From assembly GCF_013122565.1 (NCBI RefSeq), contig NZ_CP053258.1: a stretch of DNA of 64,000 bases. The stretch is one strand, 5' to 3'. Below, in pieces: positions 1 through 6,660 of this stretch. Positions within the stretch are counted from its first letter, which is position 1; the number at the start of each line of letters is the position of its first letter. Below the pieces are notes generated by a model that was not told the origin of the DNA, made no database searches, and worked only from the letters and a program-made list of their open reading frames with translations. Made by a program: the position numbers and the translations under genes. The DNA is from Escherichia coli. Lineage in GTDB: Bacteria; Pseudomonadota; Gammaproteobacteria; Enterobacterales; Enterobacteriaceae.

Positions 1-713
1 CGCTCTCCTGTTCAGCCGATCGCAATATCAAAGCAAAAATTAACAAGCACGGTATCTGGCTGGAAAAACTCGAACACAATCCGGGGCAATATATTCCAGC
101 CTCACTATGGGAAGAAAATCACGCGCAACATGTACAACTGGATCTAAACCGTCCGTTGCGTGACGTGATGCAGGATCTCGCCAGATTACCGGTAGGTACC
201 CGCGTGTCGTTAAGTGGTCCCATCGTAGTGGCGCGCGATATCGCCCACGCCAAAATAAAAGCGCGGCTGGATAGCGGCGAATCGATGCCGGAGTACCTGA
301 AGCATCATATTGTCTATTACGCTGGCCCGGCGAAAACACCGGAGAACATGGCCTGCGGTTCACTAGGTCCAACCACGGGCGGTCGAATGGACGGTTATGT
401 CGATACCTTCCAGGCTGCTGGCGGCAGTCTGGTGATGTTATCGAAAGGTAACCGCAGCCAGCAGGTCACCGATGCCTGTCACAAACATGGTGGCTTCAAT
501 CTGGGAAGTATTGGCGGTGCAGCTGCGTTACTGGCGCAAGAATATGTCAAAAGTCTGCGTTGCCTGGAATACCCGGAGCTGGGTATGGAAGCGGTGTGGA
601 TGATGGAAGTGGAAAATCTGCCCGCATTCATCCTGGTAGATGATAAAGGCAATAATTTCTTTAGTCAGTTTGAGCAGCAACACCGCTGCGCCAGTTGCCC
701 TGCGGGACATTAA
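1..713 (+). CDS. Class I (Fe-S) fumarate hydratase, FumA/FumB-family paralog; 3' portion only, 5' end lies outside the window
   Basis: Frame 3 is open from position 3 to the stop at 711-713. The translation ([31 protein letters not shown] ... [12 protein letters not shown] ... ELGMEAVW ... [12 protein letters not shown]) matches the hinge and C-terminal domain of FumA/FumB as I recall them. The ORF track shows only the TTG-initiated tail 156..713. Confidence 0.8.
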
Positions 714-722
714 GGAAAATGA

Positions 723-1325
723 ATGGAAGCGCGAATTTCAACTGAACGGCATGTGCAGCGCCAGCAGAAATTGAAGGAACAGGTCGATACGCGCGTCGCG
801 GCGGCGATAGAGAAAAAAGGGATCTTGATTGTTTTCACCGGCAATGGCAAAGGGAAATCCACTGCCGCGTTTGGTACGGTGACGCGCGCGGTGGGTCATG
901 GCAAAACGGTGGGGGTTGCGCAGTACATCAAGGGGCAATGGGACAACGGCGAATACAACCTTCTCCAGCCGCTCGGGGTTGAGTTTCATATTATGGGAAC
1001 CGGTTTTACCTGGGAGACACAGAACCGGCAAGCGGATATCGACGCGGCGAAAGAGGTCTGGTCGGAAAGCAAACGGATGCTGGCTGACAAGCGTTACGAC
1101 TTAGTGGTGCTTGATGAGCTGACCTATATGCTGGCTTACCATTATCTGGATACCGAAGAAGTGATCGCTTCTCTGCAAAACCGCCCGGCACAACAAAGTG
1201 TCATTGTCACCGGACGCGGTTGCCACAGTCAGATATTAAAAATGGCGGATACGGTCAGCGAAATCCGCCCCGTCAAACATGCTTTTGATAACGGCATTCA
1301 GGCCCAGCCGGGTATCGACTGGTAA
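723..1325 (+). CDS. Cob(I)yrinic acid a,c-diamide / cob(I)alamin adenosyltransferase family protein (BtuR/CobO-like paralog)
   Basis: 200 aa with P-loop GNGKGKSTAAFG and strong similarity to E. coli BtuR as recalled (VFTGNGKGK, GFTWETQNR, VVLDELTYM, TGRGC, VSE-RPVKHAFD). AAGGA Shine-Dalgarno sits 6 nt upstream of the ATG and 9 bp after the fumarase stop. Confidence 0.8.
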   Translation: MEARISTERHVQRQQKLKEQVDTRVAAAIEKKGILIVFTGNGKGKSTAAFGTVTRAVGHGKTVGVAQYIKGQWDNGEYNLLQPLGVEFHIMGTGFTWETQNRQADIDAAKEVWSESKRMLADKRYDLVVLDELTYMLAYHYLDTEEVIASLQNRPAQQSVIVTGRGCHSQILKMADTVSEIRPVKHAFDNGIQAQPGIDW

Positions 1326-1328
1326 TAA

Positions 1329-1360
1329 CTGCGCCTGGCATCCCGCCAGGCGCAGGTTTT
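1329..1360. terminator. Bidirectional intrinsic terminator between the convergent CobO-like and LysR genes
   Basis: Perfect 11-bp inverted repeat CTGCGCCTGGC-atccc-GCCAGGCGCAG followed by GTTTT on the + strand and flanked by an A/T run for the opposite strand. Confidence 0.5.
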
Positions 1361-2264
1361 ACATCTCCTGCGGTACGACCGATTTCGCCAGCAACCATTC
1401 ACGAAATTGCTGCAAGTGCGGCGAGTCAGACTTCTCTTCCTGCCACGTCATAATAAAACGATTACCGGTACGAATAGGCACATCACAGGGAATCACCATA
1501 TCGCCACTATCCAAATCATGTTGAATAGCGAACCGTGGTAACAGCGCCACGCCGAGATTAGAGCGCACGGCGGCAATCAACATTGAAAGCAAATCGAAAC
1601 GTGGCCCGTTGTTGACCAGCGGACTGCTAACGCCAGATAAAGCAAACCACTCTTCCCAGCCAGTAATACGGGTGCTTTGATGCAGAAGTGGTAACTCAGT
1701 AAGCAGTTCTGCCACTGACAGTTTTTGATCGGACATTGCAAGCAAACTGCCGCTGCATACCGGCAAAATCTCCTCTTCAAAGAGATATTCTACTTCCGCC
1801 CAGGGCGCGCAAAAATTTTCGCGCATAATGACAGCATCGTACTCCCGATTAAGAAAATCGCCGTTATTAGCTAAAGAATGAATATTAACAATAATATCGG
1901 GATGTAACTTTGTGAATTCATGTAAATTTGGGATTAACCAGTGGGTACTAAAAGTAGGATTAACGGCAAGTTCAATAACCTGAACCGTAGGCTGCCAGGT
2001 CATAATGGTATTGGTATCGCGTTCCAGCTTATTTAATGTTTCTTTTACTATCCCCAGGTAATACTTCCCTGCATCATTAAGAAAAATACGTTTTTTAGAG
2101 TGTGAAAATAACGGAGTACGTAAAAATTCCTCCAGCGCACTTACTTGTCTGAATACTGCACTTTGGGTTAACGCTAACTCCTCTGCCGCTCTGGTATAAC
2201 TTTCATGACGTGCGACGACCTCAAAAGTCACCAGCAGTTCCGTTTTAGGTATTTTTCCTCGCAT
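1359..2264 (-). CDS. LysR-family transcriptional regulator
   Basis: N-terminal HTH region (LVTFEVVARHESYTRAAEELALTQSAVFRQVSALEEFL) and LysR-type substrate-binding C-terminus. Start chosen at MRGKIPKTELL (2264) rather than the longer track ORF starting at 2294. Confidence 0.8.
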   Translation of the reverse strand: MRGKIPKTELLVTFEVVARHESYTRAAEELALTQSAVFRQVSALEEFLRTPLFSHSKKRIFLNDAGKYYLGIVKETLNKLERDTNTIMTWQPTVQVIELAVNPTFSTHWLIPNLHEFTKLHPDIIVNIHSLANNGDFLNREYDAVIMRENFCAPWAEVEYLFEEEILPVCSGSLLAMSDQKLSVAELLTELPLLHQSTRITGWEEWFALSGVSSPLVNNGPRFDLLSMLIAAVRSNLGVALLPRFAIQHDLDSGDMVIPCDVPIRTGNRFIMTWQEEKSDSPHLQQFREWLLAKSVVPQEM

Positions 2265-2854
2265 AATGCCTTCCGTGAAAAAATAACAATTCAAAAAATT
2301 ATTTTATAAAAAACAGTAGCGCTAATGAATATCATAATTCAAATAAACAAACCAGTCAGCTATATGTCTAACCAGGAAAATAAAGTGACAATAATCCTAA
2401 AACAGGAATTTCACCTCAGTTATCCGCATGCAATGCTTTAAAGCCATTATTGCAAGAATATTATTCATATACATGAATATACTCTAAATAAGTCGAGTTG
2501 GAGGAAGGGAACAAATAATGAATTTCCAGAAGCTTACATAAGTAAGTGACCTGGGTGAGCGAACATCGATGCAGCACATGCAACTTGAATTATGACAAGT
2601 ATACAATGATAAATTTAGATACCCTATGTTATATATTATCTATGTCCGGTTAAATTGAATGAGTCATGGCCTTCAAAGACATCGCAAAAGATAATTTCTC
2701 TTTAACAATAAGCCAGATTTACCACTTGTAAAAATTGCTATCGCCACATACACTACGCGCGTTTTCTTTCCCTTTTGCTGGCTGCTGACCGGAAAGACAA
2801 AATTACCCTCGCAATACAGGGGGTTGTTTAACGTCTATATTTCAGGACAGCGTT

Positions 2855-4252
2855 ATGCATCATCTTTCAAGGCTTGATAAAGCCTTTCTGCGCAAAGGGA
2901 TCCAACTTTCCCGCGCCAACAATATTGTTTCATTATCTCGTCCATCAGGTGTCAGTGCCCGCGTACTGCTGCCAGACGAACTGCCGCTGGAAGAAAAAGC
3001 AGTAACACAACTGCTTGATTTTGCAGAAGTGAAGCTACCAGACCACCCAGGTTATGTACGCCAGACGTGTGCGACGCCAGATTTTCATCCCGGCAATGGC
3101 GTCCCCGTTGGCGCGGTGGTAGCCTCAACGCCGGATTTAGTCATTCCCGCCGCCATCGGCACCGATATTTCTTGTGGCATGCGGCTGCTGACGACCGGAA
3201 TAACACTTGAGCAAGCCGAAGCGCATAAAGACGTCATCACTCAGCGGTTAACGCAAGTGTTACTGCAAAATGAGCGCGATGTTCCGTTATCTGCACGAGC
3301 GTTCACCGCGCTTTTTGATGGCGGGCCGGCAGATTGCATGTCGGCCTTGCCATCAGCAGGTCTCTGGACACGCACGAATATCCCCCGAATGGTACAAGAG
3401 ATTGACCGCTGCATTGGGCTGAACGAGCATAAAAGTCATTCGCGTTATGCCCCACCCGCCCTGCTGGCAACGGACCGCGCATTACTCCGCGACCCTTGTC
3501 TGGGTACGCCGGGTTCAGGTAATCATTTTATTGAACTTCAGGTAGTTGATAGCGTGATCGATCGCCATGTAGCCTGGCAACAAGGGCTGAAAACAGGCGA
3601 TATCGTGGTGATGATCCATAGTGGATCGCGAGATGTCGGCTTTTACGTCGGACGACGCTGGACGGACCGTGCCCGCGCAGACTGGCCCGCTGGGCATAAA
3701 CATCCACAAAGCGGGTTATATGGTCTGGCTGGTGGACTGGCGGAGGAATATCTACAAGCGATGGGAATGGCGGCGCGTTACGCATGGTTAAATCGCGTGA
3801 CCATTACGGAAATGGTGCGCGTATGTTTTGCCGATTTATTCCATCAGGATGAATCACATCTGGTGGTGGATGTGCCGCATAACATCATCCTTCGCGAGCA
3901 TGAGATGAATATTCATCGCAAAGGCGCAACACCGGCACGTGCGGGCGATCTGGCGTTAATCCCCGGTTCAATGGGCGATTATTCGTGGCTTGCGGTAGGT
4001 TGCGGCAACCCGGAGTGGTTGTGGTCATGCAGTCACGGAGCAGGACGCAGCCAGCGTCGGCAGGCCATGCGCGCACACGCGACTGAAGAGTCAACGCTGC
4101 CGTGGCAATGCGTAACACTGCGTGAAGAACGGCGTATTGAGGAAGCGCCAGCTGCTTATAAAGATATTGGTCCGGTTATCGAAGCCCAACAAGAAGCTGG
4201 ATTAATTCAGCCAGCGGTCAGATTTCGACCGTGGTTAACGTTTAAGGCATAA
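2855..4252 (+). CDS. RtcB-family RNA ligase paralog (orphan)
   Basis: 465 aa with the RtcB signature motifs DISCGMR, GSGNHFIE, HSGSR, HN...HRKGA, IPGSMG and SHGAGR. Stop codon is immediately followed by the sucD 3' terminator palindrome. Confidence 0.8.
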   Translation: MHHLSRLDKAFLRKGIQLSRANNIVSLSRPSGVSARVLLPDELPLEEKAVTQLLDFAEVKLPDHPGYVRQTCATPDFHPGNGVPVGAVVASTPDLVIPAAIGTDISCGMRLLTTGITLEQAEAHKDVITQRLTQVLLQNERDVPLSARAFTALFDGGPADCMSALPSAGLWTRTNIPRMVQEIDRCIGLNEHKSHSRYAPPALLATDRALLRDPCLGTPGSGNHFIELQVVDSVIDRHVAWQQGLKTGDIVVMIHSGSRDVGFYVGRRWTDRARADWPAGHKHPQSGLYGLAGGLAEEYLQAMGMAARYAWLNRVTITEMVRVCFADLFHQDESHLVVDVPHNIILREHEMNIHRKGATPARAGDLALIPGSMGDYSWLAVGCGNPEWLWSCSHGAGRSQRRQAMRAHATEESTLPWQCVTLREERRIEEAPAAYKDIGPVIEAQQEAGLIQPAVRFRPWLTFKA

Positions 4253-4349
4253 AAAAGGCCATCATACGATGGCCAACCATGTCGAAACCGACAGCCCTTC
4301 GCCATTCCTGTAGAGGGAAGCGGCGAGGGCTATTTCTTATTACAGATAT
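4253..4349 (-). ncRNA. sdhX: sucD 3'UTR-derived sRNA (SdhX/RybD-like) with intrinsic terminator
   Basis: Minus-strand region directly after the sucD stop ends in hairpin GGCCATCGTATGATGGCC followed by TTTTTT (4253-4276 on +). Position and terminator match the SdhX sRNA as I recall it; exact 5' end not determinable. Confidence 0.5.
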
Positions 4350-5219
4350 TTATTTCAGAACAGTTTTCAGTGCTTCACCGATATCCGCCAGGCTGCGAAC
4401 GGTTTTCACGCCTGCGGCTTCCAGAGCCGCGAATTTCTCATCCGCAGTCCCTTTCCCACCGGCAATGATGGCACCTGCGTGGCCCATACGTTTGCCTTTC
4501 GGCGCAGTCACACCAGCGATGTAACCTACAACTGGCTTGGTAACGTGCTCTTTGATGTACGCTGCTGCTTCTTCTTCAGCGCTACCGCCGATCTCACCGA
4601 TCATCACGATCGCTTCGGTCTGCGGATCTTTTTCGAACATTTCGAGGATGTCGATAAAGTTAGAGCCAGGGATCGGGTCACCGCCGATACCAACACAGGT
4701 CGACTGACCGAAACCGTAATCCGTGGTCTGTTTAACCGCTTCATAGGTCAGTGTACCGGAACGGGAAACGATACCCACTTTACCCGGTTTGTGAATGTGA
4801 CCAGGCTGGATACCGATTTTGCATTCACCTGGGGTGATAACGCCCGGGCAGTTCGGGCCGATCATACGAACGCCGGCTTCATCCAGTTTCACTTTCACAG
4901 TCAGCATATCCAGCGTCGGGATGCCTTCAGTGATGGTGATAATCAGTTTGATGCCTGCGTCGATGGCTTCCAGAATGGAGTCTTTGCAGAACGGTGCTGG
5001 TACGTAGATAACAGAAGCGGTAGCGCCAGTGGCAGCAACGGCTTCACGCACGGTGTTGAACACCGGCAGGCCGAGGTGGGTGGTGCCGCCTTTACCTGGG
5101 GTTACGCCGCCAACCATTTTAGTGCCGTATGCAATAGCCTGTTCTGAGTGGAAAGTCCCCTGGCTACCGGTAAAACCCTGGCAGATAACCTTGGTGTTTT
5201 TATCAATTAAAATGGACAT
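4350..5219 (-). CDS. sucD: Succinyl-CoA synthetase alpha subunit
   Basis: 289 aa, [27 protein letters not shown]..., CoA-binding and phosphohistidine motifs; start overlaps the sucC stop. Confidence 0.97.
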
Positions 5220-6385: not shown

Positions 6386-6469
6386 GTGTTCTGTCCATCC
6401 TTCAGTAATCGTTATCTTTTAAACCGTAGACCGAATATTTCGTATCGCTTCCGGGTATTGTCGGTCACC

Positions 6470-6640
6470 CGTAGGCCTGATAAGACGCGTCAGCGTCGCA
6501 TCAGGCATCGCTTGTCGGATGCGGCGCGAGCGCCTTATCCGACCTACATCGGTGCTTCCCGTAGGCCTGATAAGACGCGTTAAGCGTCGCATCAGGCTTC
6601 AATGGCCGGAGAAGGCGATAATGCCTTATCCGGTCTACAG
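6470..6640. repeat. BIME / cluster of REP palindromes in the sucB-sucC intergenic region
   Basis: Several alternating-orientation REP units (GCCTGATGCGACGCT...CTTATCAGGCCTAC type, and GCCGGATGCGGCG...CTTATCCGACCTAC). Confidence 0.85.
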
Positions 6641-6660
6641 TGCAGGTGAAGCTTAAACTA

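Follow-up and report, generated by a model that had tools for sequence, protein, structure and literature searches.

Roles and modes of control of bacterial RtcB RNA ligases are known for two contexts only, the rtcBA operon activated by RtcR, and RtcB2 with its partner PrfH, a release-factor homolog that pairs with RtcB2 in ribosome repair after colicin E3 (PMC9304027, PMC9223846). The RtcB gene considered here lies next to sucABCD on an Escherichia coli chromosome (contig NZ_CP053258.1 of assembly GCF_013122565.1), within a stretch of 64,000 nucleotides that we call the window and which shares 97.6% identity with strain 2017-02-2CC over its first 4.4 kb. A preliminary description of the window, made from the sequence alone, drew attention to this gene as an orphan ligase and suggested that it might form a stress or defense module with a divergently transcribed LysR-type regulator. 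We consider it likely that positions 2726-4252 are instead a self-contained RtcB unit, consisting of the gene, its own promoter, and a folded leader of about 95 nt which controls translation in cis, and that the LysR gene is unrelated. The enzyme family is already known; what appears from sequence comparison to be new is an RtcB ligase accompanied by a promoter of its own and by a structured leader spanning phyla.

RtcB1 of E. coli K-12 (b3421), the ligase of the rtcBA operon activated by RtcR and sigma-54, belongs to the same Pfam family as the window RtcB and has the same metal-ligand and GMP-histidine motifs, but it is 408 rather than 465 amino acid residues long and only about 30% identical, and the window locus lacks RtcA, RtcR, and a -24/-12 element. 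Nor is the leader found upstream of K-12 rtcB (locus L088 of our set) by the covariance model, R2, that detects it upstream of the window RtcB. RtcB2 is likewise a member of the RtcB family and an accessory gene of patchy distribution in E. coli, but the intact PrfH-linked protein has 379 residues, is again about 30% identical to the window RtcB, and has a partner gene, PrfH, that the window lacks. The best relatives of solved structure are the long RtcBs of Thermus and Pyrococcus (T. thermophilus TTHA1785 and P. horikoshii PH1602; about 148 bits, E about 1e-42), which are similar in length and have an N-terminal extension in common with the window protein; this similarity is distant, however, and the window clade is proteobacterial and cyanobacterial, with a clade-specific leader. 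No archease gene was seen in the Pfam-annotated neighborhoods of the RtcB orthologs.

Identity and distribution of the window RtcB

From residue 63 to residue 464 the window RtcB matches PF01139, covering positions 7-425 of the 426 in the model (E=1.9e-95), and alignment with P. horikoshii RtcB (1uc2) shows that all RtcB motifs are kept (PDFH, GTDISCG, GSGNHF, HSGSR, PHN, and SHGAGR), with the Asp and Cys metal ligands in GTDISCG and the GMP-histidine in SHGAGR; an alignment with 2epg also shows GTDISCG, GSGNHF, HSGSR, PHN, and SHGAGR. The metal-ligand and GMP-histidine motif residues do not vary in 21 members of the clade. The ratio of nonsynonymous to synonymous substitution (dN/dS) is 0.13 relative to other E. 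coli alleles and 0.077 relative to an 86% identical ortholog (range 0.07-0.16), and RtcB is therefore a functional gene and no pseudogene. We conclude that RtcB is intact, in keeping with the catalytic motifs noted in the preliminary description, and under purifying selection. The chemistry of the family, GTP- and Mn2+-dependent joining of 3'-phosphate or 2',3'-cyclic phosphate ends to 5'-hydroxyl ends, is presumably that of the window RtcB as well. A cluster of 189 E. coli RtcB sequences has a 398-residue representative with 85% query coverage, which could be a truncated allele or reflect another start call.

Several absences noted in the preliminary description were borne out by directed searches. 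The sigma-54 site TGGCAC-N5-TTGCW has no match in 2265-2854 with as many as 2 mismatches allowed; K-12 RtcA, K-12 RtcR, and E. coli PrfH have no tblastn match within the 64-kb window; and just beyond the window's edge lies an operon encoding glutamate mutase together with methylaspartate ammonia-lyase rather than RtcA, RtcR, or PrfH. The open reading frames (ORFs) and a sliding-window GC content of 0.30-0.39 in 2265-2854, compared with 0.52-0.57 in the flanking genes, likewise bear out the description of RtcB and LysR as divergent genes separated by an AT-rich region. No tRNA, tmRNA, or Rfam family was detected between LysR and RtcB, and the small ORFs in 2265-2854 are of a size expected by chance.

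The window RtcB also falls outside both known enterobacterial contexts by score, with 201.6 bits against the rtcBA-type model NF007153 (cut-off 407) and 164.7 bits against the PrfH-type model TIGR03073 (cut-off 271.8). A search of 5.8 billion proteins places it in a tight family of orthologs, 462-470 residues long and 58-68% identical, with members in Burkholderia, Ralstonia, Variovorax, Chitinimonas, Undibacterium, Pseudomonas aeruginosa, and elsewhere. When one genome per species was scanned, further members came from Gilliamella, Snodgrassella, Xenorhabdus, Pectobacterium, xanthomonads, and Massilia and, at about 40% identity, from many filamentous cyanobacteria and some myxobacteria.

Orthologs at 55-68% identity across Beta- and Gammaproteobacteria have no constant neighbor, and the survey across 80 loci bears out the preliminary view of a gene that stands alone. 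When some 1,050 neighboring ORFs from 83 loci were clustered, no family was common to more than 3 genera except generic LysR-type proteins, which are at most 26% identical to the window LysR; the Pfam-annotated neighborhoods contain nothing recurrent and are mutually unrelated. RtcA is absent from all 88 RtcB loci, as is PrfH save for a weak partial match of 57 residues at 47% identity (L081), and an RtcR ortholog occurs near the clade RtcB in only 3 of the 88, all from Gilliamella, with an opposed gene in between. The absence of a conserved partner gene is thus a property of the entire clade. We conclude, as judged by profile scores, identities, and gene neighborhoods, that RtcB belongs to a distinct branch outside the rtcBA/RtcR and RtcB2-PrfH contexts.

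Some individual neighborhoods are worth recording. In the three Gilliamella loci (L016 2967-8121, L017, and L029) an RtcR ortholog (58% identical to K-12) and an RtcB1 ortholog (71%) precede the leader-bearing RtcB by 2-7 kb, so that two RNA-repair loci are clustered in these bee-gut symbionts; the RtcB1 gene sits between two 534-residue ORFs, one with a faint SPFH/HflC-like match. A metagenome-assembled genome of the Comamonadaceae (L014 818-3714) carries an RtcB1-like gene (53% identical to K-12 RtcB) followed in tandem by the leader and a clade RtcB. In some P. aeruginosa genomes (L004 7073-9404) the leader-bearing RtcB is inserted with nuoN and a methyltransferase gene before it and an AI-2E-family transporter gene after it, and the size of the P. 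aeruginosa RtcB cluster (299 sequences) suggests an accessory gene there as well.

Promoter and leader of the RtcB gene

The coordinates of the putative sigma-70-type promoter, the leader, and its helices are given in Table 1. Both CTTGT and the -10 hexamer are kept in layouts A and B of the E. coli locus and in L094, a contig from a distant relative, despite a differing spacer. Over the last 108 nt or so before the ATG these three hardly differ, even where synonymous sites of the gene are saturated (coding dS about 1.1). A promoter of its own and a conserved leader would make the regulation of this RtcB different from that in the two known contexts, as the preliminary description had suggested. 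Among 37 genus representatives, 23 have TANNNT 2-13 nt before hairpin P1, and the GC content of the discriminator averages 0.74; in the window (2755-2761) and in about 23 proteobacterial loci the discriminator is a CCGCGC-like GC-rich stretch before the leader, resembling stringently controlled promoters. A GC-rich discriminator hints at growth-rate or stringent control of transcription.

The leader architecture recurs before RtcB orthologs in virtually every locus, always in the same order: a -10-like hexamer (TAGAAT, TATACT, or TACACT), a GC-rich discriminator, P1 with a GCUGCUG loop, one to three variable hairpins, and a CAGCAGC-like stretch, which is found just before the start codon in Proteobacteria and over the start codon in Cyanobacteria (AUGCAGCC, codons 1-3). 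Of 86 loci, 76 (17 of them cyanobacterial) carry the exact heptamer between 62 and 140 nt before the RtcB start, whereas about 3 would be expected from its overall frequency (1,346 GCTGCTG copies in 3.5 Mb). In many betaproteobacterial leaders the CAGCAGC stretch is the only Shine-Dalgarno-like sequence. CsrA-type GGA sites could be recognized by eye in some Proteobacteria only.

Cyanobacterial leaders (L058-L082, from about -150 to +10 of the RtcB start) have a longer invariant loop, (C)GCGGCUGCUGAAC, whose GCG part has no intramolecular partner, and an extra conserved hairpin upstream of P1 (GUUGUUUUCCC...GGGAAAAUAAC). The first 10-11 nt of this loop are the exact complement of 16S rRNA 518-528. 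Complementarity to the 16S 530 loop beyond the heptamer is confined to cyanobacteria and xanthomonads (13 of 35 genera), however, and the +1 base beyond the heptamer never matches; we rejected the loop as an antisense to the 530 loop, which remains a low-probability idea.

No RNA family of Rfam 15 corresponds to the leader. There is no match at E<=1 in window positions 1200-4500, none at gathering score in 7 loci, and only noise at E<=10 in Burkholderia and Gilliamella leaders. A full-text literature search found no description of a structured RNA upstream of rtcB, an absence that is no proof of novelty; nor is RtcB mentioned in the main text of the large motif-discovery papers retrieved.

Tests of the leader structure

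The covariance model R2 was bootstrapped from 13 and then 18 leaders and searched over both strands of 1.77 Mb. Its 44 best hits (24-76 bits) all lie on the plus strand, their ends coinciding exactly with RtcB start codons, 26 are outside the 18 seed sequences, and the first off-target hit scores 22 bits; in the window the single hit at E<=1 is 2765-2857 (68.4 bits, E=6.7e-16). R2 took the place of an earlier model, R1, which was built from 13 AT-rich leaders and proved too narrow, ranking betaproteobacterial leaders at E 0.002-1 among 3-4 off-targets. It also replaced a descriptor scan (heptamer, flanking helix, downstream complement, and ORF), which was dropped as unspecific since 276 of its 332 hits lay elsewhere, mostly in GC-rich genes. 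A metagenome scan for CCTTCC-N(2-8)-GCTGCTG-N(0-4)-GGAAGG gave at least 120 chance matches, none of which was followed by RtcB among the matches listed, and is uninformative on other genes.

Several lines of evidence point to a conserved RNA fold: i) in the R2 alignment 90% of cells assigned to pairs are paired compared with 72% in shuffles (0 of 500 as high), and the covariation score is 0.525 compared with 0.217 in shuffles (0 of 500) and at most 0.126 when the partners are slid; ii) all 13 pairs of P2 and P3 show two-sided changes among 39 distinct leaders, and RNAalifold on the gammaproteobacterial group agrees with the P2/P3 rod; iii) RNAalifold pairs the heptamer with the initiation region in the gammaproteobacterial/Neisseriales, betaproteobacterial, and cyanobacterial groups, each taken alone; iv) in single-sequence minimum free energy (MFE) folds, 36 of 37 genus representatives have at least 4 heptamer bases paired with the start region, compared with 19.5% of 1,480 dinucleotide shuffles, and the fold of the E. 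coli leader pairs 12 of the 15 nt from -12 to +3; and v) the heptamer helix varies only from GC to GU and from UA to UG (GU in 11+2 cells, UG in 6+20), and such wobble-only changes fit a sense-strand RNA rather than a DNA palindrome.

Since P2 and the 3' arm of P1 overlap, P1 was left out of the scoring of the R2 alignment. Shuffling the sequences one by one gave only a weak test of P1 (median p 0.11), its arms being CU-rich and GA-rich, and matched arms were therefore compared with mismatched arms instead: the scores are 14.74 and 10.88 across 35 genera, with 0 of 5000 permutations as high overall, 0 of 5000 within Proteobacteria, and 122 of 5000 within Cyanobacteria. An intrinsic-terminator reading of P3 was rejected as not general across lineages. 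The heptamer-start helix, P2, and P3 together make up a rod that is predicted to be the thermodynamically preferred fold in nearly all lineages and would bury the initiation region; since P1 shares its 3' arm with P2, the two folds compete.

The neighboring LysR gene and the methylaspartate island

The longest ORF of the LysR gene is 1359-2294 on the minus strand, but RefSeq orthologs begin at the ATG equivalent to 2264, so that the region between LysR and RtcB, 2265-2854, is 590 bp long. The published gene map of the methylaspartate (mesaconate) island of E. coli O157:H7 includes a LysR-type regulator (Kronen & Berg 2015, PMC4682846), and window positions 1-2264 correspond to the distal end of that island, with fumD, cobO, and LysR in the same order in E. 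coli, Salmonella, and Enterobacter; the published cluster is without the RtcB unit, as are most islands. In strain 2017-02-2CC, the closest complete genome, the genes run from cydA and two hypothetical genes through glmS-glmL-glmE, methylaspartate ammonia-lyase, AtuA-like, DUF4387, a dicarboxylate/amino acid:cation symporter, class I fumarate hydratase, cobO, and LysR (on the opposite strand) to RtcB and sucD. Because the window starts inside the fumarase gene, the island operon was not visible to the preliminary description.

Orthologs of the window LysR (57-99% identity) lie beside cobO/fumD in Salmonella, Yersinia, and Enterobacter, where RtcB of the window's clade is absent; the identity is 85% in Salmonella enterica, 84% in Enterobacter, and 63% in Yersinia enterocolitica, in which the regulator lies between the glm operon and fumD-cobO, a classical position for a pathway regulator. 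The gaps adjoining LysR in Salmonella and Enterobacter contained no remnants of RtcB. A count over 5,426 complete E. coli genomes finds the LysR gene in 1,119 and RtcB together with its upstream 108 nt in 289; the two are directly adjacent in 144, and about 830 of the 1,119 LysR-bearing genomes are without RtcB. Conversely, no ortholog of the window LysR could be found near 80 RtcB loci of other genera, the best protein being 26% identical and its distance variable. We conclude from gene order and co-occurrence that LysR regulates the methylaspartate/mesaconase island and does not belong to the RtcB unit. Annotation by adjacency would here have been a trap, the LysR neighbor belonging with glutamate fermentation via methylaspartate rather than with RNA repair.

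Rearrangements of the locus

How LysR and RtcB came to be adjacent can be read from alternative layouts. Pairwise blastn with layouts B and C shows that window positions 637-2282 and 2747-4400 match the hut layouts and that 2283-2746 does not; other RtcB-bearing E. coli genomes match the window from 2747 onward only. In strain ampC_0069 (L002, the one examined) an 8.6-kb hut operon lies between LysR and RtcB on the LysR strand, divergent from the RtcB promoter, and contains hutU, a cytosine-type permease, hutD, hutI, hutG, and histidine ammonia-lyase (L002 5598-13339; L094 1531-9250). L094 has the same hut layout, with RtcB 86% and LysR 89% identical to the window's and a different downstream gene. 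The LysR-RtcB adjacency in the window exists because the hut operon was replaced by a 464-bp filler carrying an ERIC element and, on this comparison of layouts, is a local rearrangement and no conserved regulatory pair. The breakpoint at 2747 falls inside the promoter spacer, yet a CTTGTA -35-like hexamer stands at equal spacing in both layouts.

In layout C (L003 5477-6141, the single locus examined) RtcB is reduced to fragments corresponding to 3979-4035 and 4209-4252, accompanied by hut fragments; strains which have kept both kinds of fragment but not the gene are therefore deletion derivatives of the hut layout. The deletion scar, seen in detail at one locus, appears to show that RtcB was lost repeatedly or early in large E. 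coli lineages.

ERIC/IRU elements are intergenic repeats of about 127 bp, multi-copy in enterobacterial genomes and bearing ERIC1R and ERIC2 primer sites; the one within the filler has an ERIC2 site at 2540-2561 (2 mismatches; 0 such sites expected), and an apparent 7-codon mini-ORF with a strong Shine-Dalgarno sequence (MNFQKLT) falls within it. Farther downstream, the sucB-sucC intergenic region (6386-6660) is about 275 bp long here and in 2017-02-2CC but 94 bp in ampC_0069 (L002) and 1190 (L003), and its translation has a repeated RRPDKTRQ signature typical of repetitive extragenic palindromic (REP) sequences and bacterial interspersed mosaic elements (BIME).

Table 1. Features of the RtcB locus and its surroundings, in window coordinates (strand: +, -, or. 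where none applies)
Feature	Position	Strand	Basis and remarks
Class I fumarate hydratase (FumD-type mesaconase), 3' part, cut by window start	1-713	+	NCBIfam NF011921, profile positions 366-550
cobO, cob(I)yrinic acid a,c-diamide adenosyltransferase, last gene of island operon	723-1325	+	NF004637, 295.6 bits vs cut-off 185; RefSeq agrees
GC-rich terminator-like hairpin between convergent cobO and LysR	1329-1355	.	Consensus scan; 11-bp stem, 9 GC pairs
LysR-type regulator (GcvA-like), 301 residues	1359-2264	-	NF008352, E=1.7e-65, below its cut-off
AT-rich filler, 464 bp, specific to window layout; hut operon (8.6 kb) at same place elsewhere	2283-2746	.	blastn; 144 genomes
ERIC/IRU repetitive element inside filler	2469-2603	.	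Median 7 matches per E. coli genome, about 84% identity; no annotated feature
Putative sigma-70-type promoter	2726-2754	+	-35 TTGTAA 2726-2731, 17-nt spacer, -10 TACACT 2749-2754, start near 2761
Structured 5' leader of RtcB mRNA, about 95 nt	2761-2854	+	Covariance model R2; about 91% identical to L094; MFE -29.2 kcal/mol, z=-2.27
Hairpin P1, arms UCUUUCC 2765-2771 and GGAAAGA 2791-2797 around heptamer	2765-2797	+	Helix search; arm covariation
Invariant heptamer GCUGCUG	2781-2787	+	76/86 loci
P2/P3 rod: P2 about 2792-2803 with about 2825-2843; P3 2805-2810 with 2819-2824	2791-2843	+	Covariation; RNAalifold
Initiation region: Shine-Dalgarno-like AGGA 2844-2847, heptamer partner GACAGC 2846-2851, start codon 2855-2857	2844-2857	+	
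RtcB-family 3'-phosphate/5'-hydroxyl RNA ligase, 465 residues, distinct clade without conserved partner	2855-4252	+	ORF, profile, motifs, dN/dS
RtcB 3' end, 44-nt remnant in strains without the gene	4209-4252	+	Several hundred E. coli genomes, extrapolated from sampled rows
Terminator-like hairpin of convergent sucD transcript	4257-4274	-	Consensus scan
sucD	4350-5219	-	ORF

Possible modes of control

We favor a model in which the leader sets RtcB synthesis in cis at translation initiation, the rod being the default off state and relief coming when the heptamer-start helix is opened. That the heptamer is invariant while its partner drifts suggests a second reader of the heptamer; and since the RtcB protein is the sole constant companion of the heptamer, autogenous repression is the form of control we favor. 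Candidate triggers can be ranked: RtcB might bind a substrate-like hairpin in its own leader and be titrated away by broken RNAs, much as in the thrS operator; an endonucleolytic cut at or beside the heptamer might free the start site; or a trans RNA carrying CAGCAGC might open the helix. The thrS operator and ribosomal-protein leaders are comparable in that a leader overlapping the ribosome-binding site is tied to one gene family whatever the context, and the invariant loop of the RtcB leader suggests, by analogy with autogenous operators, recognition by a conserved macromolecule. The comparison is meant only in the sense of works-like: the RtcB leader has no sequence or structural homology to thrS-type operators, and its start site is also sequestered by an intramolecular helix.

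We emphasize that several considerations weigh against such a model. The heptamer helix is supported by conservation, by one-sided changes compatible with wobble, and by thermodynamic prediction, two-sided covariation being absent because the heptamer never varies. The alignment from which pairs were counted was fitted to the model, and the E-values of the model are rough. Variants from Variovorax, xanthomonads, cyanobacteria, and the Pseudomonas chlororaphis type escape R2 and were recognized only by eye and by RNAalifold, and GCTGCTG is so common in GC-rich coding DNA that the heptamer alone is not diagnostic. When P1 is forced, the leader is a median of 7 kcal/mol less stable than the rod, and a nested model cannot score P1 together with a heptamer pseudoknot; a true switch between the two folds is for these reasons only putative. 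The putative promoter and transcription start were placed by consensus and conservation, and the trigger is a guess.

Could the upstream element instead be a metabolite or ion riboswitch, or a transcription attenuator? Two competing folds do share one strand, a U-run follows P3 in AT-rich hosts, and ligands are conceivable, since RtcB needs GTP and Mn2+ and RNA decay yields 2',3'-cyclic nucleotides. Heptamer aside, however, the leader has almost no conserved unpaired nucleotide, and its loops and junctions vary in length and sequence unlike those of known aptamers; Variovorax and Delftia leaders have entire hairpins inserted; the U-run belongs to the 3' arm of P2, and is absent or distant in Burkholderia and cyanobacteria; and no Rfam riboswitch family matches. 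We regard a riboswitch or attenuator as unlikely. Still harder to credit is that the element acts as DNA, the inverted heptamers GCTGCTG...CAGCAGC serving as operators for a transcription factor and the RNA structure being incidental. Both copies are indeed conserved rather than covarying, and they lie just downstream of the putative promoter, but the 3' copy varies by transitions which keep G-U pairing on the sense strand only, and it shifts from before the ATG in Proteobacteria to codons 1-3 in Cyanobacteria while remaining complementary; P1, P2, and P3 covary, and no regulator gene is conserved nearby.

Control of the divergent RtcB by the LysR protein, as a two-gene stress or defense module, was the reading of the preliminary description, and the two genes do face each other across a single intergenic region in the classical LysR-type arrangement, common to 144 E. 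coli genomes. Those 144 are a small part of the 1,119 genomes with LysR, however, most of which lack RtcB; LysR travels with the methylaspartate island and its orthologs are fixed to cobO/fumD in four genera without the clade RtcB, none of the 80 other RtcB orthologs has an orthologous LysR, LysR and RtcB are kept apart by the hut operon in layout B and L094, and the putative RtcB promoter, some 500 bp away from the LysR start, is conserved whatever lies upstream. We consider LysR control of RtcB very improbable, although the LysR protein may yet bind somewhere in 2265-2854. It is equally hard to believe that the upstream region is a separate small RNA (a substrate, a guide, or a Y-RNA-like partner of the ligase) with RtcB expressed by read-through; our confidence in this is minimal, as it is for DNA operators. 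Stable hairpins do stand straight after the promoter, some hosts have a U-rich tract, and Salmonella-type rtc operons carry Y-RNA-like genes, but there is no general terminator-like end and no Rfam match, and the structure always reaches the RtcB ribosome-binding site or start codon and is therefore inseparable from the mRNA.

Returning to translational control in cis, a more specific form of it, possible but in our judgment doubtful, is that the leader is a direct sensor of RNA damage, opened by cleavage of the heptamer or by titration of RtcB by broken RNAs. Ligase synthesis would then follow RNA breakage without a protein regulator, and RtcB might reseal or rebind its own leader as feedback. 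If true, this would be a third, RNA-only control of bacterial RNA repair beside RtcR/sigma-54 and PrfH coupling, extending from Proteobacteria to Cyanobacteria.

The window RtcB represents a third branch of the family, common in Burkholderia, Variovorax, Pseudomonas, insect-gut symbionts, and filamentous cyanobacteria, with no protein partner and with an RNA leader whose core heptamer is unchanged across phyla. If the leader controls translation, this branch would offer a compact system for asking how cells sense RNA breakage and, through whatever recognizes GCUGCUG, a handle on the natural substrates of the ligase.

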